64,000 nt of DNA. Origin: Bacteroidales bacterium (lineage in GTDB: Bacteria > Bacteroidota > Bacteroidia > Bacteroidales > Tenuifilaceae). The stretch lies in NCBI GenBank assembly GCA_013141385.1, contig JABFRB010000022.1, forward strand, positions 92,106 to 156,105, written 5' to 3'. A program made the position numbers and the translations under genes. Positions 1,599-45,505 of the stretch are shown in pieces. The notes beneath the pieces are model-generated. The model ran no database searches, had not been told where the DNA came from, and worked only from the letters and a program-made list of their open reading frames with translations. Position 1 is the first letter of the stretch. Each line of letters opens with the position of its first letter.

Positions 1599-3602
1599 AT
1601 GAGCATTTTTTCAAATAGGCTAGCATCCGAAACAAGTTCATATTTACTTCAACATGCAACTAATCCCGTTGATTGGTATCCTTGGGGTGATGAGGCTTTC
1701 AACAAAGCAAAACTTGAAAATAAACTTGTGCTTGTAAGTATTGGATATAGTAGCTGCCATTGGTGCCATGTTATGGAGCGTGAAGCCTTCTCAAATACTG
1801 AGGTTACAGAATTCATGAATAATAATTTTGTGAATATAAAGGTTGATAGGGAAGAAAGACCCGATATTGATCAAATATATATGAATGCGGTGCAAATTAT
1901 TAATCGAAATGGTGGATGGCCTTTGAACTGCTTTACTCTCCCAAATGGAAAGCCTGTTTTTGGTGGTACATATTTTTCAATTAAGGATTGGTTAGATGTA
2001 CTTAAAAATCTAAATAATACGTGGATTAATGATTCAAATCGAATTATTGATGTTGCTGAAGAATTATCACAAAGTGTTGGAGGTACAGAGGTGATTAGGT
2101 TTAAACGAGATATTGACACTTTTTCTACCGATGTGCTTAAAAATTACTCTAGCTCTCTAAAAAAACTTTTTGATACAAGAAATGGAGGCATTAAAGGGGC
2201 TCCTAAATTTCCTATGCCGGGTTTATTGGATTATCTTCTTGAGTATGCTTACCATTTGCCTGATAAAGAAATGCTTGATTATGTTTTTTTAACACTCAAT
2301 AAAATTGCATCAGGTGGTATTTATGATCATTTAGGAGGTGGTTTTTCTCGCTATACAGTTGACGAAAACTGGCATATTCCACATTTTGAGAAAATGTTAT
2401 ACGATAATGCCCAGCTGATTTCAATATACTCAAAGGCATACCGTATAAATCCAGACAAACATTACTTGGACGCTGTAAAGTATTCAATAGATTTTGTAAT
2501 CAACGAATTAAGAGCTCCCGAAGGGGGGTTCTATTCATCCTATGATGCCGATAGCGAAGGTCATGAAGGCACCTATTACATATGGACAAAGCAAGAACTC
2601 GAAGCAATTTTAAAAGAGGATGCAGAACTTTTCTCAGTCGCTTATGGAGTAACAGCTACTGGCAATTTTAATAAAAGTAATGTTCTCATTCAATCGGCAT
2701 CAAACGAGCAACTTGCAAGCATTTTTTCATTAGATATTCAAACCGTTGAACTGAAAATCTTGCAATCAAAACATAAACTTATTGAACATAGAAAACTCAG
2801 AGTTAAGCCTGCATTGGATGATAAAATTATTCTATCGTGGAATAGTTTAATGATTTCAGCACTTACCGAAGCGTATATTTCTTTTGGTGAAGCGAATTAT
2901 CTTGAAGCTGCTACTGGATGCGCTAATTACATTCAGGAATATCATTATTCTGATAATCAATTGAAACGAGTTTACTGTAAAGGTAAACTAGCAATTAATT
3001 GTCTGTTGGAAGATTATGCTCATCTTATAAAAGCATACGTATCAATTTACAAAATCACTCTGGATAAAAAATGGGTAAATAATGCTGAATCACTTTTGAC
3101 CACTGTAATTGAAAATTTTTACGATGAATCATCAGGTATGTTTTTTTATGCTTCAACAATTGAAAATAAACTAATTGCAAGAAAAATGGATTTAACCGAT
3201 GGTGTGACTCCATCATCAGGATCGATTATGGCTCAAGCGTTGTTTGAAATTGGTACAATACTTAAAAAGGATGAATACATCCTAATGTCGAATCAAATGC
3301 TTGCAAATATTAGTGACTCCCTAAATCATGGTGGACCTTACGTATTTGGTTGGGCTAAGCTTGTGCTTATGCAACAATTGTCTGCCATTCATCTAACTAT
3401 CAACCCTGACATACATAAATTTCAATTAAATCAAATACTTAGCAAAGTACTATGTTCAACAATATTTACTTCTGTTAGTTTATCATCCACACAATGCACT
3501 GAGACTGCTAACAATATTAAAATTTGTATTGGTAAATCGTGCTACCCAACATCATCGGACACTAATTACTATGTGGATTTAATAAACTCTACTAAAATTT
3601 AA
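1599..3602 (+). CDS. Thioredoxin-domain protein of the YyaL/DUF255 family (N-acylglucosamine-epimerase-like C-terminal region)
   Basis: 667-aa ORF; N-terminal [11 protein letters not shown] motif typical of DUF255/spermatogenesis-associated-protein-20-like proteins; long alpha-helical C-terminal region; last ~60 aa Cys/Ser-rich and atypical. Confidence 0.7.
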
Positions 3603-3672
3603 ATGGCAGATATTGAATGTTCTTTTTGGCTATTATAGCTATTTTTGAACTTCAATCATATGCTAATTCACC

Positions 3673-4509
3673 ATGGCAAACCACCTCAATTTAACCGAAA
3701 AATTTATTGCATTCAATGAATCAATTCTATCTGTGGTTGATTTTAACTATACATATTCTGACTCTGATAAAGTTATATATGAGGTGATTAGAGTTATTAA
3801 CTCTACCCCTATTTTCTTGGAACTTCATCTCGATAGGCTTTTCAATTCAATAAAGTTGATGGGTTTATATGCTCCTGAGAGAGGTGTTATTACAAGAAAA
3901 ATTACTGAACTACTTAAAGCAAACCCCGTTGCTGAGAACAATATTCGAATTTCATTAGTTTACAACTCGAATTCAAAACCAGATCTACTCATTTACTTTA
4001 TTCCCAGCACTTACCCAACCGAAAGTCAGAAAACAAATGGCATTAAAATTAAATTTCTAAATGCTAATAGAGATAATCCAAATGCCAAAATTGAAAATAT
4101 TAATCTTAGGGCCAACGCTAATGCCATTATTAAAGAAACTGGGTGCTATGATGTTCTCCTTATAAATAAAGATGGTTATATCACTGAGGGAAGTCGATCC
4201 AATGTTATCTTTATTAAAAATAATTACCTAATCAGCGCTCCTTTGAAAATGATCTTGAATGGAGTTACTCGTCAGGTAGTTGTAAATGCAGCGAAAGAGA
4301 TTGGAATACAAGTTAAAGAAGAATTAATTACTGCTGATGAAATTTCATCATTTGATGGTGCTATACTAACAGGTACCTCTCCCGGAATACTTCCAATTGC
4401 TTCAATTGATAACCATATATATAGAGTTGAATTACCTTTAATAATTTCTTTGACCAAGCAATATTATAATGCTGTTGCAAGGGACATTTCAAATTTTAAA
4501 GTTTCATAA
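3673..4509 (+). CDS. Class IV aminotransferase family protein (branched-chain/D-amino-acid aminotransferase or aminodeoxychorismate-lyase-like)
   Basis: 278-aa ORF with the fold-type IV PLP enzyme size and layout (…LTGTSPGILPIASID…); family-level call only. Confidence 0.5.
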   Translation: MANHLNLTEKFIAFNESILSVVDFNYTYSDSDKVIYEVIRVINSTPIFLELHLDRLFNSIKLMGLYAPERGVITRKITELLKANPVAENNIRISLVYNSNSKPDLLIYFIPSTYPTESQKTNGIKIKFLNANRDNPNAKIENINLRANANAIIKETGCYDVLLINKDGYITEGSRSNVIFIKNNYLISAPLKMILNGVTRQVVVNAAKEIGIQVKEELITADEISSFDGAILTGTSPGILPIASIDNHIYRVELPLIISLTKQYYNAVARDISNFKVS

Positions 4510-4510
4510 A

Positions 4511-5278
4511 ATGAACGTATCAATAATTCAATCCGATTTGTATTGGGAATCACCCTCGAAAAACAGGGAGATGTTCGATGAAAAAATTAGTACCATCGAA
4601 AGTAATATTGATTTGATTGTTCTACCTGAAATGTTTAGCACTGGTTTCTCGATGTCACCAGAAAACCTAGCAGAGAAATGGCCTGGCCCTTCGGTAAAAT
4701 GGATGCAAAGGGTTGCAATATCAAAGAAAGTTGCATTAACGGGTAGTTTGATTGTTGAGGATGACAATAAGTATTATAATCGTTTGGTATTTGTTCATCC
4801 CGATGGAAAACTGGAGCACTACGATAAACGCCACCTATTCCGAATGTCGGGCGAGCATAAATATTATGATATTGGAACAAGTCGCAAAATTGTAACCTAT
4901 AAAGATTTTAGAATTCTATTGCTTGTGTGCTACGACCTTCGTTTCCCAGTATGGAGCAGAAATCGTAACGATTACGATATGATTCTAATTGTAGCTAACT
5001 TCCCCGAAGCCCGTCGCAACGCGTGGAATACGTTGTTATCAGCACGAGCTATAGAAAACCAATGTTTTGTTGTGGCATGTAATAGAGTTGGAAAGGATGG
5101 AAACGAGGTTAACTATTCTGGTGATTCTCAAATTATCGACCCAAAAGGCAAAATATTGGTAAGTGCAAAACCTAACGAGAATCAGATAATAACATCAAAT
5201 ATCTCTATTCAAGAGGTTCTTGATTTTCGTACCTCATTTCCAGCGCATCTGGATGCTGATGATTTTATGATCAATTAA
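4511..5278 (+). CDS. Carbon-nitrogen hydrolase (nitrilase superfamily, omega-amidase-like)
   Basis: ATG at 4511 directly after upstream stop; E-K-C catalytic triad contexts LPEMF, HYDKRHLF, LLVCYDLRFP. Confidence 0.7.
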   Translation: MNVSIIQSDLYWESPSKNREMFDEKISTIESNIDLIVLPEMFSTGFSMSPENLAEKWPGPSVKWMQRVAISKKVALTGSLIVEDDNKYYNRLVFVHPDGKLEHYDKRHLFRMSGEHKYYDIGTSRKIVTYKDFRILLLVCYDLRFPVWSRNRNDYDMILIVANFPEARRNAWNTLLSARAIENQCFVVACNRVGKDGNEVNYSGDSQIIDPKGKILVSAKPNENQIITSNISIQEVLDFRTSFPAHLDADDFMIN

Positions 5279-7012: not shown

Positions 7013-8212
7013 ATGGCAAAAAGAACAATCGTAGCCATGCCCGGTGATGGCATTGGAAAAGTTGTATTAGATGAAACAATTCGTGTACTTGATGCAGCCG
7101 GTTTCGATGCTGAATATGTTAATGGTGATATCGGATGGGAATTTTGGTGTAAAGAAGGCAATCCCCTTCCTGATCGTACTATTAAATTACTTGAGCAACA
7201 CAAAATTGGTCTTTTTGGTGCAATTACTTCAAAACCAAAGGATAAAACCTTAGCTGAATTAGATCCTAAATTAAAAGATAAAGGATTCATATACTATAGT
7301 CCAATCGTGACCATGCGTCAAAAATTCGGTTTGGATATTTGTATGAGACCATGTATTACCCTACCCGGTAATCCATTGAATTTCGTTCGTCGCAACGCTA
7401 AAGGTGGAGTAGATGAGCCTGTTGTTGATTGTATGGTTTTTCGTCAAAATACCGAAGGTTTATACGGTGGTGTTGAATGGACAAATCCTAACGATCAGGT
7501 TTATGATACATTCATGACACATCCAAGATTCAAAGAGAATTTTGCTTGGTGTCCAAGACCAGAATTAGCTATCTCAACAAGAATTGTAACAAAGAAATAT
7601 TCCACAAGAATAATTAAAGCCGCTTTTGAATACGCTAAAAAACGTGGTTTTGATAAGATTACAGTTTGCGAGAAACCAAATGTTATTCGCGAAACATCTG
7701 GAATGATCCTAAAAATTGCTCAGGATATGAGTAAAAATGAGTATCCTAACATTTGGGTTGAAGATGTTAATATTGATGCAATGATGATGTGGTTGACCAA
7801 AAACCCAGAAAACTATCATGTAATTGTTTCTGAAAACATGTTCGGTGATATCGTTTCCGATGCATTTGCTGGTTTAATTGGCGGACTAGGTTTTGCAACT
7901 TCTGCCCAGTTTAACCCAGAAACTGGAGTTTGTGTTTTTGAACCAACTCACGGATCAGCTCCAAAATACGCTGAATTAAATCCAAGTATTGTAAATCCAA
8001 TTGCAATGGTTCTTTCAGCAGTTATGATGCTTGAGCATATTGGTGAAGATAAAATTGCTAACCGCATTAAAGATGCCGTTTTACAAGTAGTAGCAGAGGG
8101 TAAAGTAAAATGCTACGATATGATGAAAATGAGCGGTAAGCAAGAAGTTATAAATAACGGAGCTGCTTCAACAACACAAATGGCTGACGCAATTATAGCA
8201 AAACTTAAATAA
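7013..8212 (+). CDS. Isocitrate/3-isopropylmalate dehydrogenase family beta-decarboxylating dehydrogenase
   Basis: 399 aa; N-terminus MAKRTIVAMPGDGIGKVVL and C-terminal GSAPKYAELNPSIVNPIAMVLSAVMMLEH are hallmark IDH/IPMDH motifs. Confidence 0.75.
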   Translation: MAKRTIVAMPGDGIGKVVLDETIRVLDAAGFDAEYVNGDIGWEFWCKEGNPLPDRTIKLLEQHKIGLFGAITSKPKDKTLAELDPKLKDKGFIYYSPIVTMRQKFGLDICMRPCITLPGNPLNFVRRNAKGGVDEPVVDCMVFRQNTEGLYGGVEWTNPNDQVYDTFMTHPRFKENFAWCPRPELAISTRIVTKKYSTRIIKAAFEYAKKRGFDKITVCEKPNVIRETSGMILKIAQDMSKNEYPNIWVEDVNIDAMMMWLTKNPENYHVIVSENMFGDIVSDAFAGLIGGLGFATSAQFNPETGVCVFEPTHGSAPKYAELNPSIVNPIAMVLSAVMMLEHIGEDKIANRIKDAVLQVVAEGKVKCYDMMKMSGKQEVINNGAASTTQMADAIIAKLK

Positions 8213-8224
8213 ATTAATTTCTTA

Positions 8225-8267
8225 ATGGCCTTATCTTTCTTCCCTTGAAATTTAAGGCCATTTTTAT
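8225..8267 (+). terminator. Putative hairpin terminator after the dehydrogenase gene
   Basis: ATGGCCTTA…(19-nt loop)…TAAGGCCAT followed by TTTTAT. Confidence 0.3.
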
Positions 8268-8288
8268 AACCATTAATTAAGAAAAACT

Positions 8289-8864
8289 ATGATGAAGATA
8301 GAAATTGAATCAAAGTTCATTGAACAAGCCAAGCAATTATGGCCTGAACTTGAATGGATTAAAAATAGTGAGTTGAAAGAACAAACAACTCGTACATGGG
8401 CATTAGCTCTTCAAAAAAGTGTTTTAACTCCTGACGATTTAAACACTATTCCATTTACCCTTCTTTGTGGTCCAGATTTGAAGGTTACCTTCATGGGGCA
8501 TAAACGTGCAGTGGTTCATATTGCAAAAGATTGCGGTGATCAGATGAATAAATTCTTCAAAACTGATCTTCCTGTTAATATGGACGTACTCATTGCAGGT
8601 GCTATTCTTGCTGATGTTGGAAAACTTCTTGAGTACGAGATGAAAGATGGTAAATCAATTCAAGGTAGTTACGGTAAATATCTAAGACACCCATTTTCAG
8701 GCGTTTCTTTAGCCGAAATGTGCGATGTTCCACCAGCAGTTTGCCATATTATTGCTACTCACGCTGGTGAAGGCGATATGGTAAAGCGCACTACTGAGGC
8801 TTTTGTTGTTCATCATGCCGATTTTATGACCTTTGAGCCATTTAAGGATAGGTTGAAACTATAA
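8289..8864 (+). CDS. HD-domain-like protein (degenerate HD motif)
   Basis: 191 aa; LIAGAILADVGK resembles the HD-superfamily core xxxLLHDIGK but with AD in place of HD; H residues upstream (GHKRAVVHIAKD) and downstream (HIIATHAGEGD…VVHHADF). Confidence 0.4.
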   Translation: MMKIEIESKFIEQAKQLWPELEWIKNSELKEQTTRTWALALQKSVLTPDDLNTIPFTLLCGPDLKVTFMGHKRAVVHIAKDCGDQMNKFFKTDLPVNMDVLIAGAILADVGKLLEYEMKDGKSIQGSYGKYLRHPFSGVSLAEMCDVPPAVCHIIATHAGEGDMVKRTTEAFVVHHADFMTFEPFKDRLKL

Positions 8865-9062
8865 TCTTTGAATTGAATAACGAATGATGATTAACGATTT
8901 AAAATTTTTGAAGTTCTCAAGAAACAAACCTATTTACAAAGATCTTAAATCAAAATTCGTTAATCCTTGTTCTTAAATCAAAAAGTAGAGAAGACTCTTT
9001 GATAGATTTGAAAACAAATCTTGATTAGTCAAACTGAAAACGATAGATAAAATTCATCATCC

Positions 9063-10868
9063 ATGAACCTAATAGAGAAAATTATTGCCAATCATAGCAA
9101 CAAGAAAATTGTTTGCGCCGACGAAATCGTCGATATTCTAATTGATACCCGTGCAGCTCGTGACTTTGGCGGAGCAAACGTGGTTAAAAATCTTGTAAGC
9201 AACGGTTTAACTGTTAATGATCCTGCACGTACCTTTTTTACTTTCGATTGTAATCCCACAGGATCAGATCAGAAGTATGCTGCAAACCAGCAGTACTGCC
9301 GAATGTATGCAAGGGAGAATAATATCAAAGTATTTGATATTGATGCAGGAATTGGAACCCACCTTGCCATTGATGGCGGTCTTGCTTGGCCCGGTAGTAC
9401 TTTTGTTAGTACCGATTCTCACGCCAATATTATGGGTGCAATTGGTTCCTTCGGACAGGGAATGGGTGATCAGGATATTGCTGCTGCTTGGGCAAAAGGT
9501 TCGCTTTGGTTTAAGGTACCGCAATCAGTGAAACTGGTTTTTAAAGGAAAACGTCCAGCAAATATCTCAGCAAAGGACATCACACTAAATCTTCTGAAGA
9601 TTTTTGGCGCAAATAAACTCCTCGGTTTATCTGTTGAGTTTTATGGCGAAGCCATTGATGCGCTAACTCTTGATGAACGTATCACCATTGCCTCAATGGC
9701 AACTGAAATGGGTGCTATTATCTTCCTATTTCCAGCCAGCAAAGCAATTCACGAATACTGCGAAAAGAAAGTTGGAAAAAAACTAGAGATTCTTAAAGCA
9801 GATGATGACGCTAAATACGAGGATATCAAAGAGATCGACATAAGTAGTTTTGTGCCTATGCTTGCTCGTCCCGGGAAACCTCACGATAATTCTAGCGTTG
9901 CAAATGAAAAGGGTAAAAAAATTGATTCTGCCTTTATTGGTAGCTGTACCAATGGTCGTATGGAAGATTTGAGGGAAGCTGCCAAGATCTTAAAGGGCAG
10001 AAAAGTTGCACCTGGTGTAGTTCTTAAAATCGTTCCTTCCACCGATCCTATTTGGAAACAGGCTATGGACGAAGGTTTAATCCAAATCTTCAAAGATGCT
10101 GGTGCAATGGTTTCTAATGCAGGTTGTGCAGGTTGCGCAGCAGGCCAAGTTGGTCAGAATGGACCTAAAGAGGTAACTATCAGCACAGGTAACCGTAACT
10201 TCGAAGGAAAACAAGGAAGCGGTTTTGTTTACCTAGCATCTCCAAGTATTGTGGCTGCATCTGCCGTTGCAGGTTTTATTACCACACCTGATGAGATCCC
10301 TGCAAAACCTACCGAATTTGTAAAACCAGAGGTTACAGGATTTAAACTTGGAGTTAAGAAAGAAGCACAAAAAGATAAACCACTCGTTGTTGAAGGTCGT
10401 GTTTGGGTAATTCTTAAGGATGATATCGATACCGATATGATTTTCCACAACCGCTACCTTACCATCACCGATATTAAAGAGATGGGACAATACGCTTTCG
10501 ATAACCTAAAGGGTTATGAGGATTTTGCTAAAAAGGCACAGCCAAACGATATCGTAATTACTTCCAAGAATTTTGGTGCTGGTAGTTCACGTCAGCAAGC
10601 GGTTGATTGCTTTGCTTCATTGGGTATATCTTGCATAATTGCTGAATCTTATGGTGCGATTTACGAAAGAAATGCAATTAATGCAGCTTTTCCAATTCTC
10701 ACCTACAAACCCGGCTTAATTGAGTCTATTGATATTAAGGATGGTGATAAGATTCGGGTTGATATGGCAAACGGTAAGGTAACTAATTTAAAGAATAGCA
10801 AGACTTCTGATATCAATAAGTTTACCGATGTTCAGATTGAGATATATCGTAATGGGGGATTGTTGTAG
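9063..10868 (+). CDS. Aconitase-family dehydratase, fused LeuC-like large and LeuD-like small domains (3-isopropylmalate dehydratase/homoaconitase family), paralog 1
   Basis: 601 aa; N-terminal aconitase catalytic-domain motifs (…VSTDSHANIMGAIGSFGQGMG…, CTNGRMEDL, NAGCAGCAAGQVGQ) and C-terminal swivel/LeuD-like region (GRVWVILKDDIDTDMIFHNRYL…KNFGAGSSRQ). Confidence 0.75.
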   Translation: MNLIEKIIANHSNKKIVCADEIVDILIDTRAARDFGGANVVKNLVSNGLTVNDPARTFFTFDCNPTGSDQKYAANQQYCRMYARENNIKVFDIDAGIGTHLAIDGGLAWPGSTFVSTDSHANIMGAIGSFGQGMGDQDIAAAWAKGSLWFKVPQSVKLVFKGKRPANISAKDITLNLLKIFGANKLLGLSVEFYGEAIDALTLDERITIASMATEMGAIIFLFPASKAIHEYCEKKVGKKLEILKADDDAKYEDIKEIDISSFVPMLARPGKPHDNSSVANEKGKKIDSAFIGSCTNGRMEDLREAAKILKGRKVAPGVVLKIVPSTDPIWKQAMDEGLIQIFKDAGAMVSNAGCAGCAAGQVGQNGPKEVTISTGNRNFEGKQGSGFVYLASPSIVAASAVAGFITTPDEIPAKPTEFVKPEVTGFKLGVKKEAQKDKPLVVEGRVWVILKDDIDTDMIFHNRYLTITDIKEMGQYAFDNLKGYEDFAKKAQPNDIVITSKNFGAGSSRQQAVDCFASLGISCIIAESYGAIYERNAINAAFPILTYKPGLIESIDIKDGDKIRVDMANGKVTNLKNSKTSDINKFTDVQIEIYRNGGLL

Positions 10869-10986
10869 AGAAGACGCTAAGGTGCAAAGACGCAAAGTTA
10901 TTAATCTGTGATTATCTGTTAAGTCAGTGTCATCTACGTTCTATAGTTTTAAAATAGTATTTCAAAATCTTTAATAGATAAGATAT

Positions 10987-37973: not shown

Positions 37974-38106
37974 GTGATAAGGTTTTGGAGTTAGGATGCA
38001 CAATAAGGCTATCGCAAAGTGCGATTATTGAGATGCAATGGTATTTTATTTGAGCATGTTTTTACCTTTTATCAAGTTTAATGATTCTGATTTTATCTTA
38101 GGATTT

Positions 38107-38457
38107 TTAGCTCCTTAAAATCTTATCCATTGCTTTACCCTTTGCCAATTCATCAACTAGTTTATCTAGGTAACGAATTTTTTGCATAAGCTCGTCTTCA
38201 ATTTCTTCAACTCGATAACCACAAATTACGCCCATGATTTTTGAAACATTTGGATTAATCTGCGGTGCTTGGGCGAAGAAGGTTTCAAAATCATTATTCT
38301 TATCGATTTGTTGTTGCAATGTTTGTTGATCATATCCTGTTAGCCAAAAAATAATGGCATCTACCTCAGCTTTTGTGCGTCCCTTTTTCTCCGTTTTTTG
38401 TATATACAACGGGTATACACTTGCAAAAGAGGTTTTAAATATTTTTGTATTATCCAT
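38107..38457 (-). CDS. Small conserved hypothetical protein (cassette gene 3, copy 1)
   Basis: 116 aa, [47 protein letters not shown]…; conserved-looking, function unknown (DUF-type). Confidence 0.4.
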
Positions 38458-38609
38458 TTTGCTTGTTATTAATTATCAAGGTTAATTTCCTTTAGTCAGC
38501 AACTAGTTAACTTTGTTGTTCTTGCGTTCCTAATGAGTCAACAGCCCAAATACAACCGAGCGTTTTGTGCGAGTTCGGCGGAGCCAATAAATACGCTGTC
38601 AGTGCTAGG

Positions 38610-38918
38610 CTATATTTTCTTGATTTTCTCTGGGTTCTGTCTACAATCAAAGACTGATGCAATTGTGATAAGATTTTCCTTCTTCCAATAAATGATTTTG
38701 TAATTGCTTTCAACCAGATATCTAAATTCTTCTGGGTAGTTGCTTAAAAGTTCTTCTTTCGGGCCTGCTGATGGATTGCTTTCTAGGATGGTAACTTTGT
38801 CAAGAATTCTATTTATTATCTTTCTTGCAATTCGTGAACTAACCTCTAATGAATAGTAATCAAATATGTCTTTGAGTTGCCTTTCAGACAGTTCAGACCA
38901 TTCAATCCTTATTTCCAT
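38610..38918 (-). CDS. Type II toxin, ParE/RelE family (copy 1)
   Basis: 102 aa; …YKIIYWKKENLITIASVFDCRQNP… typical RelE/ParE C-terminal region; 10-bp overlap with upstream antitoxin ORF. Confidence 0.7.
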   Translation of the reverse strand: MEIRIEWSELSERQLKDIFDYYSLEVSSRIARKIINRILDKVTILESNPSAGPKEELLSNYPEEFRYLVESNYKIIYWKKENLITIASVFDCRQNPEKIKKI

Positions 38919-39151
38919 GTCTTCACCTTCTTCTTAAGTTCTTGGTGAGTGATAACTCGACCAGTATCGCAATCACATTTCGCTTGGTCAATCATTTCAT
39001 GGAATTCGTTCAACGACATGGGTTTTAAGTTTTTTTCATGAGAAACTTTCTTTTCCTGCTTAATGAAAGATTCAATTTTAGTGATTAGACTTTCGTCACT
39101 AATACGTAGGAATTCTTCAATTAGAATCAGTTTTCTCGCTTGAATATTCAT
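38909..39151 (-). CDS. Putative antitoxin / addiction-module component (copy 1)
   Basis: 80-aa ORF directly upstream of and overlapping the toxin gene; small, charged, helical. Confidence 0.5.
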   Translation of the reverse strand: MNIQARKLILIEEFLRISDESLITKIESFIKQEKKVSHEKNLKPMSLNEFHEMIDQAKCDCDTGRVITHQELKKKVKTWK

Positions 39152-39167
39152 GTCCTTAGTCTTTCTG

Positions 39168-39175
39168 CAAATATA
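39168..39175 (-). promoter_or_regulatory. Bacteroidetes-type -7 promoter box TATATTTG (minus strand) for cassette copy 1
   Basis: RC of CAAATATA; matches the TAnnTTTG consensus, 17 bp upstream of the antitoxin ATG. Confidence 0.35.
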
Positions 39176-39230
39176 AATGTTTTCGAAGGGAAAAGCATCG
39201 TCTTGTCGTTTTTTTAGCTTGACGCTAACG

Positions 39231-39312
39231 GGAAAGTGAAAAGGTTTTGGAGTTGGGGTGCACGATAAGGCTATCGCAAAGTGCGATTATTGAGATGCAA
39301 TGGTGTTTTATT
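39231..39312. repeat. Cassette-terminal element copy C (ATCGCAAAGTGCGAT palindrome at 39273-39287)
   Basis: Same ~82-bp sequence as 37771-37854 and 37968-38050. Confidence 0.55.
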
Positions 39313-39360
39313 GGAGCGCATTTTCACTTTTTTATCAAGTTTAATGATTCTGATTTTATC

Positions 39361-39720
39361 TTAGGATTTTTGGCTCCTTAATATCTTATCCATTGCTTTT
39401 CCCTTAGCCAATTCATCAACTAGCTTATCTAAGTAACGAATTTTTTGCATAAGCTCGTCTTCAATTTCTTCAACTCGATAACCACAAATTACGCCCATGA
39501 TTTTTGAAACATTTGGATTAATCTGCGGTGCTTGGGCGAAGAAGGTTTCAAAATCATTATTCTTATCGATTTGTTGTTGCAATGTTTGTTGATCATATCC
39601 TGTTAGCCAAAAAATAATGGCATCTACCTCAGCTTTTGTGCGTCCCTTTTTCTCCGTTTTTTGTATATACAACGGGTATACACTTGCAAAAGAGGTTTTA
39701 AATATTTTTGTATTATCCAT
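39361..39720 (-). CDS. Small conserved hypothetical protein (cassette gene 3, copy 2)
   Basis: 119 aa, identical to copy 1 except a 3-aa longer C-terminus. Confidence 0.4.
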
Positions 39721-39872
39721 TTTGCTTGTTATTAATTATCAAGGTTAATTTCCTTTAGTCAGCAACTAGTTAACTTTGTTGTTCTTGCGTTCCTAATGAG
39801 TCAACAGCCCAAATACAACCGAGCGTTTTGTGCGAGTTCGGCGGAGCCAATAAATACGCTGTCAGTGCTAGG

Positions 39873-40181
39873 CTATATTTTCTTGATTTTCTCTGGGTTC
39901 TGTCTACAATCAAAGACTGATGCAATTGTGATAAGATTTTCCTTCTTCCAATAAATGATTTTGTAATTGCTTTCAACCAGATATCTAAATTCTTCTGGGT
40001 AGTTGCTTAAAAGTTCTTCTTTCGGGCCTGCTGATGGATTGCTTTCTAGGATGGTAACTTTGTCAAGAATTCTATTTATTATCTTTCTTGCAATTCGTGA
40101 ACTAACCTCTAATGAATAGTAATCAAATATGTCTTTGAGTTGCCTTTCAGACAGTTCAGACCATTCAATCCTTATTTCCAT
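39873..40181 (-). CDS. Type II toxin, ParE/RelE family (copy 2)
   Basis: Identical protein to 38610-38918. Confidence 0.7.
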   Translation of the reverse strand: MEIRIEWSELSERQLKDIFDYYSLEVSSRIARKIINRILDKVTILESNPSAGPKEELLSNYPEEFRYLVESNYKIIYWKKENLITIASVFDCRQNPEKIKKI

Positions 40182-40414
40182 GTCTTCACCTTCTTCTTAA
40201 GTTCTTGGTGAGTGATAACTCGACCAGTATCGCAATCACATTTCGCTTGGTCAATCATTTCATGGAATTCGTTCAACGACATGGGTTTTAAGTTTTTTTC
40301 ATGAGAAACTTTCTTTTCCTGCTTAATGAAAGATTCAATTTTAGTGATTAGACTTTCGTCACTAATACGTAGGAATTCTTCAATTAGAATCAGTTTTCTC
40401 GCTTGAATATTCAT
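40172..40414 (-). CDS. Putative antitoxin (copy 2)
   Basis: Identical protein to 38909-39151. Confidence 0.5.
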   Translation of the reverse strand: MNIQARKLILIEEFLRISDESLITKIESFIKQEKKVSHEKNLKPMSLNEFHEMIDQAKCDCDTGRVITHQELKKKVKTWK

Positions 40415-40589: not shown

Positions 40590-43109
40590 TTATATCATTT
40601 TTAATATATCTGATGCAACCTCATTAATATGAATAAATGTGACTCTATCACCAATTTTCAAGGATAAATCAAAAGACTCAGAAAAATATTCATTTCTTGT
40701 TACTAAATCTGAAATAATTACTAAATCTTTGTCAACATCTGTAACAATTCCCTCAAGTCTTAATTCTTTGTTTAAAAAATCAAGTTGATTGCGTGAAATT
40801 GTTGTCACTTGAGATATCCACTCCCCAGTTTCCCTATCTCGACTAGTACAGATTTTCCTAGTATCCTTTAAATAATGAGTTTGAACATCCATTAATATAC
40901 AAAAAGGATATGTAAATTCATATGTTGAACCTCTACTTCCTGCACCAACTTCTGCTAATTTTACAATATTAAACTCTTCGTTCTTAGCATGAAGAGAAGA
41001 AACTAAACTAGTTAGATTTGGTAATCTAAATCGGTAAGTTATTTGTTTTTTACATGCTTTTGCTAATGAATTAGCTATTTCTCTTTCCGACAAATCATAA
41101 CTTGACAAAAGATTTTGTGAAAAATCTTTTATGATACAAATAATATCACTCTTATTATATAATCTATTTTTTGAATAACTTGTCGAAGTAATACACTTAT
41201 CCATTAGACTTGCAAATCTACGAGAGGAACCATCTGAAGCATAAATCAGCTGTTCCAAAGCGTCATGTTCTAAACCTCCATTTATTTCAATTATATCAGA
41301 AATTTTAGTTGGTTCAATCTTGTTAATTGATACTACTTTTAAGTAATTATTAACTAACTCAATACAATACTTTCGATAAGCTTCATAATCATCACTAGTT
41401 TTTACATTGTAATCAAGGTTAACAATAGAGCCAAACCTATCCTCATTTAGAATATCTGAAATATCATTAGGATAAACAGCTATTCTAGTAAAATAAGGAC
41501 CACTATTTCTTATAGAATTCATCCAACGCAAAAAACCACTTTCAGAATCATGAAAGAATTCTCTAGGAAAAACAGGAGCAACTTCATCAATTAATAATAA
41601 AACATGAGTAAAATAGTTAGACATATTTTCCTTCAGTGCTACACCAAGCTTCCAGATAATACTTCCTTCCTGATTTGATAAGACTTTCAACTTTTGTTTG
41701 ACACGAAATAAGGCATTTCTAAATTCTGCAGATTTTAATTCTTTATCTTTTATTTCTAAAGCAGATAAGGTCGATTCAAAAATTAATTTTTCAGCAGATT
41801 CAATTATTGTACTTATTGCACTTTTCCATTCAGAACTATGAATTAATGTGAAATTTACAAGTACGGGAAATGATTCACTAACTTTTTTGTCTTTTACATT
41901 GATATCAAATGTATAATTGCCAAATACATTTAAATATCTTAATAGCATTGTTTTGCCAGAACCTCTACTTCCTCTAATTATTGCATCACCTGTGGGTCTA
42001 ACCGCACCCTTATTTCTACCCTCACTAGAAACAAACAACTGAATTATTTGATTTGTTGAGATTTTTTCTGCATTATTAAAAGTAAAGGGATTTCGTTTAA
42101 TTTTGAATTTTTCAATTAAAGTCAAATCCTCCATACTATTAGAAGAAAATGTATCAAAATTAATGATGTAAGGCAAATCAAATACGCTTGGATTTAATTC
42201 AAGTGAATTATCCTCAGTCCAAGCTCCTAAACCCAGTTTGCCACGTTTATTAGGGCTATAAGCTCTCCAATATGATTCAAGTTTTTTATTATGCGAATCC
42301 AAAATGTGAATAGTATATTGATTTTGAATTCCATCAGTCCGTTGACTTCTATCAACTCCAGCAGACCCTGAACCGGAATATATAATAACTTTACCATCAT
42401 GTTTAACCTCTTGACACCTATTTTCATGGATATGACCAGTAAATAATATGTTATAACCATTTTCAATTAAAATAGTCTCAATCTCGTAAGAATTATTAAT
42501 AATTGAATTTGATTCCTTTCCATTTTGCTCTATCCTATGATGACATATACATATTTTTGTATAATCATCATTTCCATTGCCAAGTTTCCTAACAATACTA
42601 TTAACAAGCTTCTCTGAATCTACATATCCACAATGATTTAAATGGTCTTCCTTTTCACAACTGTTTATGAACAAAAACTCAATTCCTAATCTATGATCAA
42701 AGAACCGATTATAAAACTCGGGACTTATCCTAGAGTATTTATTACATGTATTATATGCAAACTTATTATAATTACTATACTTCAGATTAACATCGCCAAC
42801 ATCTGATGATATCTCTGCTAATTTCCAATTAATATCATGATTCCCTGGTACACTTAAAACAGAGTCTTTGTCAATAGATATTTTTCGTGCTAAATTATTG
42901 ATAACATTCTCAGCGTCTAAAAATTCATCTGCATGCGCAGTTTCAGTTATATCACCTGTTAACAAAATATAAATTGGCAAAAACTGAAATTTATCCGCCA
43001 TAAAATTGATATCATTTGCAATCGATTCATAAATTTTAGAAGGATTTCCAAAACGATGTTTTGCTCCAAATTGCAAATCTGACAATTGAATAATTCCGTA
43101 TCGTATCAT
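40590..43109 (-). CDS. Calcineurin-like metallophosphoesterase (Mre11/SbcD-like) fused to P-loop NTPase with C-terminal unknown domain; candidate defense protein
   Basis: 839 aa; N-terminal motifs SDLQFG, LTGDITE, VPGNHD, ICICHH, FTGHIHEN (phosphoesterase motifs I-V); Walker A IIRGSRGSGKTMLL and Walker B HVLLLIDEV in the middle third; ~300-aa C-terminal region without recognisable motif; AT-rich codon usage. Confidence 0.6.
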   Translation of the reverse strand: MIRYGIIQLSDLQFGAKHRFGNPSKIYESIANDINFMADKFQFLPIYILLTGDITETAHADEFLDAENVINNLARKISIDKDSVLSVPGNHDINWKLAEISSDVGDVNLKYSNYNKFAYNTCNKYSRISPEFYNRFFDHRLGIEFLFINSCEKEDHLNHCGYVDSEKLVNSIVRKLGNGNDDYTKICICHHRIEQNGKESNSIINNSYEIETILIENGYNILFTGHIHENRCQEVKHDGKVIIYSGSGSAGVDRSQRTDGIQNQYTIHILDSHNKKLESYWRAYSPNKRGKLGLGAWTEDNSLELNPSVFDLPYIINFDTFSSNSMEDLTLIEKFKIKRNPFTFNNAEKISTNQIIQLFVSSEGRNKGAVRPTGDAIIRGSRGSGKTMLLRYLNVFGNYTFDINVKDKKVSESFPVLVNFTLIHSSEWKSAISTIIESAEKLIFESTLSALEIKDKELKSAEFRNALFRVKQKLKVLSNQEGSIIWKLGVALKENMSNYFTHVLLLIDEVAPVFPREFFHDSESGFLRWMNSIRNSGPYFTRIAVYPNDISDILNEDRFGSIVNLDYNVKTSDDYEAYRKYCIELVNNYLKVVSINKIEPTKISDIIEINGGLEHDALEQLIYASDGSSRRFASLMDKCITSTSYSKNRLYNKSDIICIIKDFSQNLLSSYDLSEREIANSLAKACKKQITYRFRLPNLTSLVSSLHAKNEEFNIVKLAEVGAGSRGSTYEFTYPFCILMDVQTHYLKDTRKICTSRDRETGEWISQVTTISRNQLDFLNKELRLEGIVTDVDKDLVIISDLVTRNEYFSESFDLSLKIGDRVTFIHINEVASDILKMI

Positions 43110-43650
43110 ATTTTACTTTTTATCAAGGTAGTGTTTTATTGCCTTGCGCATAACTTAATAGGGTTTTATCCCCTGTTTTCCATAACAAAATTAGCAAAAA
43201 ACATGAATGCCCAAAATTGGAAAGATCCAATAATTGAAATCCTTATAATCAAATATAACTCTTTTTATAAATTATCATTGGGCTATACTTTAGAATTATA
43301 GAACAACCCATTGTCCTATTCTATAATTCACTTTTATATTATTTCTCCAGTTTGGATTGGGAATTATTGTAGCATCCAATTTTCTTGCTTCTCTGTGTCG
43401 TTATTTTAAATATTTACATATATTTACGAAACTAATCTTCAAGTATGAATCGTTGGCAGCTTAAATTTAAGATTAAAATTAACCGCACCTGCCTCTGCGT
43501 TCGCTAATTGGATATTATCCCAATATCCCTATTTTCAATATTTTAAATTTCATTTTTCATTATTGATGCCCGCTGTTAAGCATTTTAACAGTTTGGTTTT
43601 ATACGATAATTCAATTATTACATTCTATAATCATCTAAAATAAACATAAT

Positions 43651-45189
43651 ATGACATTAGTTATCAATGGAGCAAACCTCAAGATTGAGGATGTTGTAAG
43701 AGTTGCTCGTTTCAACGAGAAGGTGGAGTTACACCCCGAGGCAGTTGCGAAAATTAATAAGTGCCGTGCAATGCTCGATAAAAAGATTGCTGCACACGAG
43801 ATTATGTACGGTATTAATACTGGTATTGGTGAATTCTCCGAGATTGTTTTAAATGATGATCAGGTTCAGGATTTTCAAAAATATCTGGTTTATAACCATG
43901 CTGCAGGTATTGGAAATGCAATGCCATTGGATCATGTAAGGGGAGCAATGTTAGGTAGAATCAATGTTCATGCTCATGGGAACTCAGGTTGCCGCATTGA
44001 AATCACCCAAACATTGGTTGAAATGCTTAATAAAGGGGTTACCCCTTATGTTTGCGAAAAGGGTTCAGTGGGTGCTTGTGGCGATTTAGCTCCAATGTCG
44101 CAAATTGCGTTACTTTTAATGGGCGAAGGTCATGCTTTCTATAAAGGGGAAAAATTGGAGGGTAAAGAGGCTATGAAGCGCGCTGGCATAACTGTTCCAG
44201 GGCTTCATGCAAGGGATGGTCTTGCTGCTATTAATGGCTCAAATGTACTTACAGCCATGAGCGCATTGATGGTTTACGATACAAATCGATTACTTAAACA
44301 TGCCGAGATTGCTTGCGCTATGTCGTTAGAGGCATTAAAGGCTAACCTAAAACCCTATCATCCAAAAATTCTTGAGGTAAGAGGATTCCCAGGTGGTATG
44401 CGTAGCGCAGCTGCAATCCGTAAGGTTACAAAGGGTGGCGATTTATCGGAAGGTAAGCTAAAAACCAAGGTACAGGATGCGTATTCAATGCGTTCGACCC
44501 CACAGGTTATTGGTGCTGCTCATGATGCGCTGAAATATGCCCGTGAACAGGTGGAAACCGAATTGAATGGTGTTGGCGATAACCCTATTTTCTTTGCTGA
44601 TGAGAATCTTGCTCTATCAGGAGCAAATTTCCAAGGTTCACCAATCTCATTACCAATGGACTTAGTTGGTGCTGCTGTTACAATGGTTTGCGTTCTATCT
44701 GAGCGTAGGATGAACCGCCTGAATAATCCAGCATTAAGCGTTGGCTTACCTCCATTCCTAACCAAAGATCCTGGAATGTTCTCGGGTTTAATGCTAAGCC
44801 AATATACTGCTGATATGCAGATTGTAGAGCAAAGAATTCTTTGTATGCCAGCTTCAATCCAATCAATCCCTGCCGCTGCGGATCAGGAAGATTTTGTATC
44901 CATGGGTATGAATACTGCGCTTAAGAATTTCCAAATTCTTGATAACGCTTATGGTATTCTTGGTATTGAGTTTATGGCTGCTGCACAGGCACTCGATCTT
45001 CGTGGATTAATTGAAACACCTTACAAATACGGTATCGGAACTCAAAAGGCAAAGGATACTATTCGTAAACATGTGAAATTCCTCGATATAGACCGCCCTC
45101 TATACCCAGATCATAATGCGATGAAAGAGCTTGTAAAAACAGGTGAAATCCTAGAGGAAGTTGAAAAGGAGATTGGAAGTTTGGAATAA
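43651..45189 (+). CDS. Aromatic amino acid ammonia-lyase family (HAL/PAL/TAL-like) with Ala-Cys-Gly at the MIO-forming position
   Basis: 512 aa; GSVGACGDLAPMSQ aligns to the HAL GSVGASGDLAPL MIO loop; additional family motifs NTGIGEFS, YSMRSTPQVIGA, GNFQGSP. Confidence 0.8.
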   Translation: MTLVINGANLKIEDVVRVARFNEKVELHPEAVAKINKCRAMLDKKIAAHEIMYGINTGIGEFSEIVLNDDQVQDFQKYLVYNHAAGIGNAMPLDHVRGAMLGRINVHAHGNSGCRIEITQTLVEMLNKGVTPYVCEKGSVGACGDLAPMSQIALLLMGEGHAFYKGEKLEGKEAMKRAGITVPGLHARDGLAAINGSNVLTAMSALMVYDTNRLLKHAEIACAMSLEALKANLKPYHPKILEVRGFPGGMRSAAAIRKVTKGGDLSEGKLKTKVQDAYSMRSTPQVIGAAHDALKYAREQVETELNGVGDNPIFFADENLALSGANFQGSPISLPMDLVGAAVTMVCVLSERRMNRLNNPALSVGLPPFLTKDPGMFSGLMLSQYTADMQIVEQRILCMPASIQSIPAAADQEDFVSMGMNTALKNFQILDNAYGILGIEFMAAAQALDLRGLIETPYKYGIGTQKAKDTIRKHVKFLDIDRPLYPDHNAMKELVKTGEILEEVEKEIGSLE

Positions 45190-45451
45190 AACTTTTAATC
45201 AATAATTAACGTGTTTTCGATATAATTTTTAACACAGAGATTTTAAGTTTTGGATCTAACAAAATGGTTGTTTTAATAAGATACAGACTTGCCATAATAA
45301 TGTTTATTGATATTGAGAAGCACTGCTTGTCCCGATGAAATCGGGAGAGAACGCTGAGGTTTGTTGATTCTGCATAAATGCAAAATCGACAATGCACTTT
45401 AAACCCTCATTTTTCAATGTAACTCCTTGTTTCGAACTAACGTTAATTAAT

Positions 45452-45490
45452 AAAAAAACCCCTCTCTAATTAAATCAGAGAGGGGTTTTA
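45452..45490. terminator. Bidirectional rho-independent terminator between convergent genes
   Basis: AAAAAAA-CCCCTCTCT-AATTAAATC-AGAGAGGGG-TTTTA. Confidence 0.55.
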
Positions 45491-45505
45491 TGTAAATTAT
45501 TGAAA

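Follow-up and report, generated by a model that had tools for sequence, protein, structure and literature searches.

Can a member of the histidine ammonia-lyase (HAL) family form its catalytic cofactor when the serine from which that cofactor is made is replaced by cysteine, and which reaction would such an enzyme catalyze? The question is raised by a gene in a stretch of 64,000 nucleotides (the whole of which is referred to below as the window) from contig JABFRB010000022.1 of a Bacteroidales bacterium. The coding sequence, located at 43651–45189 on the plus strand and starting with ATG, specifies a protein of 512 amino acids that was assigned by Pfam, profile models and alignment to the PF00221 ammonia-lyases of the type using 4-methylidene-imidazol-5-one (MIO). 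Translation and alignment with the Pseudomonas putida HAL (PpHAL) revealed Ala142-Cys143-Gly144 (GCT TGT GGC, 44074–44082, plus strand) at the MIO-forming position. With a probability of roughly 60%, we consider this protein to be a cytoplasmic ammonia-lyase of the HAL branch and of the homotetramer type, in which MIO would be made autocatalytically from these three residues. The comparisons described below point to a HAL-like enzyme in which Cys is the natural MIO precursor, with histidine as the probable substrate.

Serine and cysteine at the MIO-forming position

The PROSITE signature for the ammonia-lyase family is defined by Ala-Ser-Gly. The same tripeptide is present in all characterised ammonia-lyases of the family, according to a 2026 preprint (bioRxiv 10.64898/2026.04.22.720169). 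The loop of PpHAL, GSVGASGDLAPL, aligned without gaps to that of the window protein, GSVGACGDLAPMS, and Cys143 (codon TGT, 44077–44079) was paired with Ser143, the MIO precursor; because the alignment is gapless, residue numbers match those of PpHAL up to approximately position 183. By translation, this alignment and the PF00221 match, the first-pass annotation of an open reading frame (ORF) with Ala-Cys-Gly at the MIO loop was confirmed. Having Ala-Cys-Gly, the protein falls outside the literal Ala-Ser-Gly definition of MIO-dependent ammonia-lyases; it does possess, in Cys, the β-eliminable residue required at the MIO position, and the MIO-flanking residues Gly141, Asp145, Asn195, and Phe329 (the last in PpHAL numbering) are present.

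One genome per GTDB species was scanned, and more than 597 loci with a relative were found. The best 80 of these (75–98% identity; loci L007–L086, in most of which the match lies at about 8001–9540 of the locus), together with the window gene, form the set of 81 orthologs used below, and the window lyase plus its orthologous group is called family A. Residue 143 was Cys in 51 of the 81 orthologs and Ser in 30, with no third residue, the codons being TGC (n = 34), TGT (n = 17), AGY (n = 15), and TCN (n = 15). The closest genome, a Bacteroidales metagenome-assembled genome (L007; 98% identical in amino acids and approximately 91% in nucleotides), also carries TGT. Among the 120 closest proteins (78–91% identical) in a collection of 5.8 billion sequences, 111 had Ala-Cys-Gly and 9 had Ala-Ser-Gly.

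Fitch parsimony on a neighbour-joining tree of the 81 orthologs required at least 12 switches between Ser and Cys, and codon-aware parsimony gave TGY as the root state, about ten changes to AGY, about ten to TCN, and zero direct steps between TCN and AGY; the tree is poorly resolved at such similarity, and the switch counts are rough. In a check independent of the tree, the nearest neighbour carried the other residue for 15 of the 81 sequences. Orthologs bearing Ser and those bearing Cys interleave on the tree and are otherwise indistinguishable. As judged from these codons, TGY is a one-step bridge between the TCN and AGY serine codons in family A, and Cys is probably the ancestral state. Free interchange between Ser and Cys only, the two residues able to yield dehydroalanine by β-elimination, in a protein otherwise nearly static, fits a side chain whose heteroatom is discarded during MIO maturation. 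The idea that Cys goes together with an adjacent HutH was also considered and rejected, with no clean correlation being seen (8 Cys to 12 Ser with such a neighbour, about 43 to 18 without).

Natural Ala-Cys-Gly was also observed outside family A. In a motif search of the 150 nearest cluster representatives at 50% identity, 7 had Ala-Cys-Gly, 3 of them outside family A; in the aligned subset of full-length representatives, Cys143 was present in 5 of 121. One of the outside proteins, P0189, scored 651 on the hutH equivalog model TIGR01225 (cutoff 539), and its 120 closest relatives, from Silvanigrellales, Bradymonadales, Chthoniobacterales and others, comprised 57 with Ala-Cys-Gly and 62 with Ala-Ser-Gly. 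In this second HutH clade (P0189 and P0271–P0389; loci L087–L093), five tested members with Ala-Cys-Gly scored 659–698 on the same model. Downstream of the gene for one of them, P0352, a urocanase gene lies at a distance of 616 nucleotides, and FTCD and Amidohydro_1 (imidazolonepropionase/hutI-type) genes lie within 7 kb; natural Ala-Cys-Gly histidases therefore exist in ordinary hut clusters. The earlier statement that a natural Cys is uncommon holds for the nearest 50%-identity representatives, where Cys is a minority (5/121), and fails for family A, where it is the majority, and for the second HutH clade, where it makes up about half (57/120). The first residue of the tripeptide varies as well: Ser-Ser-Gly was present in 8 and Thr-Ser-Gly in 1 of the 150 representatives, these variants including P0126, P0130, P0142, P0144, P0155, and P0164.

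The route by which we infer that MIO arises in the window protein is as follows. The amide nitrogen of Gly144 would attack the carbonyl of Ala142, and loss of water would give the imidazolone ring; β-elimination at residue 143 would then yield the exocyclic methylidene, with H2S, not H2O, as the group leaving from Cys. The mature cofactor would be chemically identical to that derived from Ser. Formation of the same MIO from either residue would explain both the interchangeability of Ser and Cys and the use of TGY as a single-step bridge between serine codons. The suggestion in the first-pass annotation that the enzyme is probably active thus gains comparative support, from the repeated interchange confined to Ser and Cys and from the occurrence of Ala-Cys-Gly in proteins that pass the hutH model.

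Active-site residues, gene neighbours and the probable substrate

The window protein matched PF00221 with 536 bits over the full length of the profile (positions 1–466 of 466) and passed the HAL subfamily model NF006871 (535, cutoff 524). An AlphaFold2 (AF2) model had a mean predicted local distance difference test score (pLDDT) of 93.3 and a predicted template modelling score (pTM) of 0.93; such a model cannot display a post-translational cofactor and was used for fold assignment only. The closest solved structures were the P. putida HAL entries, with template modelling (TM) scores of 0.93–0.94 and root-mean-square deviations (rmsd) of 1.7–1.9 Å, and the fit to tyrosine aminomutase and tyrosine ammonia-lyase (TAL) was looser (rmsd approximately 3.1 Å). 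Canonical HALs are 34–41% identical to the window protein in Blastp and Foldseek comparisons. No signal peptide was evident when the sequence was inspected by eye.

Ten residues known from HAL to be catalytic or to bind the imidazole or the carboxylate (Y53, H83, N195, Q277, Y280, R283, N313, F329, M382, and E414 in PpHAL) are invariant in all 81 orthologs, as are Ala142, Gly144, and Asp145. In the window gene, with all features on the plus strand, the catalytic base Tyr53 of the inner lid loop is encoded at 43807–43809 (TAC), and Asn82-His83 at 43894–43899 (AAC CAT); His83 is the imidazole-binding residue of HAL, and Asn82 is a marker of family A, Ser82 being near-universal elsewhere. Asn195 (AAT, 44233–44235) is a conserved active-site residue adjoining MIO. 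The carboxylate-binding and catalytic pair Tyr278 and Arg281 (PpHAL Tyr280 and Arg283) lies at 44482–44493 and is followed by Ser282, where canonical HALs have Cys284. Phe327-Gln328 (44629–44634) corresponds to Phe329-His330 of PpHAL, the change from His to Gln being specific to family A, and Met381 (44791–44793; PpHAL Met382) is a residue of the HAL substrate pocket. Finally, Asp411-Gln412-Glu413-Asp414-Phe415 (DQEDF, 44881–44895) stands in the place of NQEDH of canonical HALs and contains Glu413, the equivalent of the imidazole-binding Glu414 of PpHAL.

As judged from these conserved residues, the α-amino group of the substrate would add to MIO, Tyr53 would take the β-proton, and ammonia would leave, while the imidazole ring would be held by His83, Met381, and Glu413 and the carboxylate by Arg281. 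Conservation of the residues binding the imidazole and the carboxylate would make conversion of L-histidine into trans-urocanate and NH3 the likeliest reaction. The substrate is most likely L-histidine or a very close analogue, which would be deaminated in a MIO-dependent manner by this HutH paralog.

Neighbouring genes at the 80 orthologous loci were clustered from simple ORF calls with ATG starts only. In 31 of the 80 loci, the histidyl-tRNA synthetase (HisRS) gene hisS precedes the lyase gene in the same orientation, and between the two there was either nothing or hutH with or without one small ORF, such a hutH paralog being present in about half of the hisS loci. The hisS calls rest on TIGR00442 for one representative (403, cutoff 287) and on tblastn for the others. 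A canonical hutH, as a second PF00221 gene, was directly upstream of family A in 20 of the 80 loci. Its product is 32–41% identical to the window protein, always has Ala-Ser-Gly, and in the four cases tested passed the hutH equivalog model (571–695, cutoff 539). These tandem pairs occurred in loci labelled Bacteroidales, Clostridia, Aminicenantes, Delongbacteria, and Cloacimonetes, with gaps down to 13–17 nucleotides. In 2 of the 80 loci, family A adjoins hutU and ftcD, and in one of them also hutI: the order was hutH, family A, M48 peptidase gene, hutU, one ORF, hutI, and ftcD in L058, and hutH, hutU, family A, and ftcD in L079. Both family A genes encode Ala-Cys-Gly. The first-pass annotation had named many Ala-Cys-Gly orthologs in canonical hut operons as a finding that would refute its reading; this is borne out in part, by these two in family A and by that of P0352 in the other clade. 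With hisS, hutH, hutU, and ftcD as the recurrent functional neighbours, the links therefore all point to histidine.

Other neighbours were considered and set aside as lineage-specific synteny or as non-recurrent. They included SusC/SusD-like genes and genes for small membrane proteins (downstream of family A in Bacteroidales only), a thioredoxin-like ORF, and genes for a WbuC cupin, a nitroreductase, an M48 peptidase, a sulfatase, RNase T-WYL, and a pyridoxal-phosphate enzyme (PALP) with an amino-acid permease. The last two genes flank that of P0012, a protein 84% identical to the window protein, which recurs unchanged on the peatland contigs L001–L006, the longest of 406 kb; one source labels it Candidatus Bathyarchaeia, a label that may reflect binning.

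Alternative functions and the genes of the window

Several findings weigh against a plain histidase. The window lyase is a lone gene: the earlier remark that it has no hut neighbours is correct for these 64 kb, since tblastn with hutU, hutI, ftcD, hisS, and canonical hutH returned nothing besides the lyase itself. The window protein missed the cutoff of the hutH equivalog model (501.4 against 539.15), as did two further family A orthologs (493–502), whereas the tested HutH proteins encoded upstream pass it. In comparison with 141 canonical relatives, family A has an invariant residue in place of a different, highly conserved one at about 35 positions. Examples are F59I, S82N, P135C, H151Q, C284S, H330Q, S410A, and H416F; several of these, among F59I, S82N, C284S, H330Q, S410A, and H416F, adjoin active-site residues. 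Plain redundancy would be an odd explanation for the occurrence of family A beside a canonical HutH in 20 of 80 genomes. Full-text searches of a literature library turned up no description of a natural Ala-Cys-Gly motif or of family A, and no member of family A has been characterised.

The degree of conservation is a further point on this side. At the 20 tandem loci, family A had a median identity of 82% (range 77–94%) and the adjacent HutH one of 49%; at the 31 hisS loci, HisRS was 60% and family A 83% identical. Recent horizontal transfer, tried as the source of the 75–84% identity across phyla, was ruled out by four-fold degenerate sites, which are saturated (the window gene and its orthologs in other lineages agree at 13–37% of them), and by the GC content of the family A gene, which follows that of the host locus. 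In 50%-identity clustering, the next relatives stand at 57% and 56%, and those after them at 45% or below. By these protein comparisons, family A is a distinct HutH paralog family that is unusually conserved across phyla, and its conservation, far above that of the adjacent HutH and of HisRS, suggests a constraint beyond that of an ordinary histidase. The constraint exceeds that of an aminoacyl-tRNA synthetase, which is the main reason for considering a function other than that of a plain histidase.

The strongest alternative is accordingly a neofunctionalised HutH paralog having the same MIO chemistry and a different job, which we hold to be clearly less probable than a histidase. The substrate could be a different imidazole amino acid (for example, N-methylhistidines or thiohistidines), with a product joining the hut pathway; the enzyme could also be a 2,3-aminomutase, depend on HutH to form mixed tetramers, or serve mainly as an ammonia donor in anaerobes. 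The missed hutH cutoff, the family-specific substitutions (including S82N by His83 and S410A near Glu414), the tandem arrangement with canonical hutH in several phyla and the exceptional identity all favor it. So does an association seen in 7 of the 80 loci, in which an aspartase-like gene and then hydF lie upstream of family A on the same strand (L043, L048, L049, L053, L054, L066, and L081; locus positions ~2300–5040), with family A 0.2–3 kb downstream. In L066 the order is aspartase-like gene, hydF, and family A, with a gap of 236 nucleotides. The best model for the aspartase-like gene was the aspartate ammonia-lyase NF008909, at scores (436–452) below the cutoff of 510, and hydF was identified by TIGR03918 (481, cutoff 326). 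An association of hyd operons with aspA, sdaA, and ilvA, as providers of the ammonia for the dithiomethylamine ligand of hydrogenase, has been reported (2024, PMC11736057), in a study that leaves HAL-family enzymes unmentioned. The association with hydF and the aspartase-like gene is real yet belongs to one Bacteroidales lineage only, and is taken as a lead, not a finding. Against a new function, none of the residues through which HAL is known to bind histidine varies, the aminomutase models scored far below their cutoffs (TIGR03832, 363 against 501; TIGR04475, 355 against 800), and no genes of an alternative-substrate pathway recur near the orthologs. That family A is an enzyme of its own, an ultraconserved HAL paralog of anaerobes with an ancestral Cys precursor and not an ordinary histidase, is a tentative proposal. 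Its members could then act on another imidazole amino acid, be obligate partners of HutH, or supply ammonia or urocanate, for example for anaerobic [FeFe]-hydrogenase maturation or urocanate respiration. The finding would be the more interesting if the ultraconserved paralog proves to have such a function.

It is considerably less probable that Cys143 is retained, leaving a loop that lacks MIO and is unprocessed or alternatively modified, with catalysis or regulation through the thiol. PF00221 members without MIO do exist, namely ergothionase and histidine-betaine lyases (bioRxiv 10.64898/2026.04.22.720169; 6s7j), and the AF2 model would be blind to a post-translational cofactor. However, those lyases use trimethylammonium substrates and do not have the motif, whereas in family A the MIO-supporting residues Ala142, Gly144, Asp145, Asn195, and Phe329 are invariant. 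Orthologs bearing either residue are interleaved and otherwise indistinguishable. Were the thiol catalytic or regulatory, it would not have given way to Ser more than a dozen times.

The first-pass annotation had proposed a tyrosine or phenylalanine ammonia-lyase that supplies a secondary pathway (flexirubin or aryl-polyene synthesis, for example), which is very improbable. In its favor are the lone position of the gene in the window and the name 'phenylalanine ammonia-lyase' in the records of some relatives, which is an automatic label. The window protein scored far below the cutoffs of the models for FlxA, the flexirubin TAL (328 against 700), for phenylalanine ammonia-lyase (PAL; 225 against 519), and for BagA/FevW (194 against 1000). 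At the substrate-selectivity position, Asn82-His83 together with Glu413 is the HAL pattern, TAL having His-Leu and PAL having Phe-Leu, and the fold is nearer to HAL (rmsd 1.8 against 3.1 Å). No pigment, polyketide, aryl-polyene, or CoA-ligase genes were present among the 30 annotated ORFs of the window, and the last three kinds did not recur near the orthologs. A sequencing or assembly error from TCT to TGT, for which a single-base difference would suffice, can be dismissed in view of TGY in 51 independent species-level genomes, Cys in 111 of the 120 nearest database clusters, and TGT in L007 at about 91% DNA identity.

Annotation of the window yielded genes for citrate lyase, aconitases, acyl-CoA dehydrogenases, several peptidases, an oligopeptide transporter, and FolD. 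At 7013–15612 there are genes for an isocitrate/isopropylmalate dehydrogenase and two tandem aconitase-family paralogs (601 and 591 amino acids), with citrate lyase alpha and beta/ACP-fusion genes on the opposite strand, and at 18102–23114 genes for acyl-CoA dehydrogenase, thiolase-like, and 3-hydroxyacyl-CoA dehydrogenase proteins. Together with the peptidases and the oligopeptide transporter, these fit a peptide-fermenting member of Bacteroidales.

Upstream of the lyase gene are a gene for a Metallophos/ORC-CDC6-like ATPase and a duplicated DUF2200-ParE module, and downstream, on the opposite strand, is a gene for an M16 peptidase. The module (38067–40414, both copies on the minus strand) is a tandem duplication of a 1263-bp unit at about 98% identity, and in each copy a DUF2200 gene and a gene for a ParE-family toxin are accompanied by a small antitoxin-like ORF upstream; L007 has only one DUF2200 copy. 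The ATPase gene (40590–43109, minus strand) encodes a protein of 839 amino acids that combines a calcineurin-like phosphoesterase domain at its N terminus with an ORC/CDC6-like ATPase segment. The protein has weak matches to PADLOC effector, CARF-AAA, and AbiLi models and is absent at the corresponding place in L007; its gene may be a defence-type gene inserted between the toxin-antitoxin module and the lyase. Around the lyase gene, promoter and terminator scans gave background levels, and an Rfam search over 42900–45500 gave sub-threshold chance matches only. One of these, to the 'L10 leader', is most likely a strong hairpin (16-bp stem) with a T-tract at 45455–45489 on the minus strand, downstream of the M16 peptidase gene, which resembles an intrinsic terminator. 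Conservation of the intergenic DNA upstream of the lyase relative to L007 equals the level of the coding region, and therefore nothing special is inferred for it.

Comparison with known ammonia-lyases

MIO is defined by Ala-Ser-Gly in textbooks and in the 2026 preprint, and the comparisons presented here indicate that Ala-Cys-Gly occurs naturally on a large scale, in at least 51 species-level genomes of family A (more than 597 loci in the scan) and in a second HutH clade, about half of which carries it. Such proteins are therefore missed when MIO enzymes are screened for by motif. Family A also offers a clean case of two serine codon families bridged through a Cys intermediate that would itself be fully functional. 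Moreover, this HAL paralog, which is uncharacterised, changes more slowly in evolution than histidyl-tRNA synthetase and is widespread in anaerobic Bacteroidales and in other phyla.

Among known systems, PpHAL (HutH; PDB 1B8F and 1GKM; TIGR01225) resembles the window protein in fold, in length, in numbering through the MIO loop, and in the identity of all ten active-site residues listed above; it differs in having Ser143 in the place of Cys, and family A is a separate paralog. Ergothionase (PDB 6S7J) and the histidine-betaine lyases share the fold (TM 0.93) and act on imidazole amino-acid derivatives, but they have no Ala-Ser-Gly motif at all and need a trimethylammonium leaving group. Unlike these MIO-less trimethylammonia-lyases, the window protein keeps a MIO-type motif and its supporting residues intact. 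The TAL of Rhodobacter sphaeroides, FlxA, and the tyrosine aminomutase SgTAM belong to the same superfamily and use the same MIO chemistry, but TAL and the aminomutase are without the HAL-type pair His83/Glu414.

The nearest natural parallels are the HutH variants with Ala-Cys-Gly (P0189, P0279, P0305, P0314, P0315, and P0352), which have the identical loop GSVGACGDLAP and likewise belong to a clade of mixed Ala-Cys-Gly and Ala-Ser-Gly members. They differ in passing the hutH model (650–698) and share only 33–41% aligned identity with the window protein; Cys therefore arose independently in that clade. The nearest parallel from the laboratory is the engineered S143C variant of P. putida HAL, made thirty years ago, which reportedly matures to a fully active enzyme and thereby showed Cys to be a workable precursor of dehydroalanine and MIO. 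The change from Ser to Cys and the residue at which it occurs are the same, and family A appears as the natural counterpart of that mutant, the Cys being a product of the laboratory in the one and of nature in the other.

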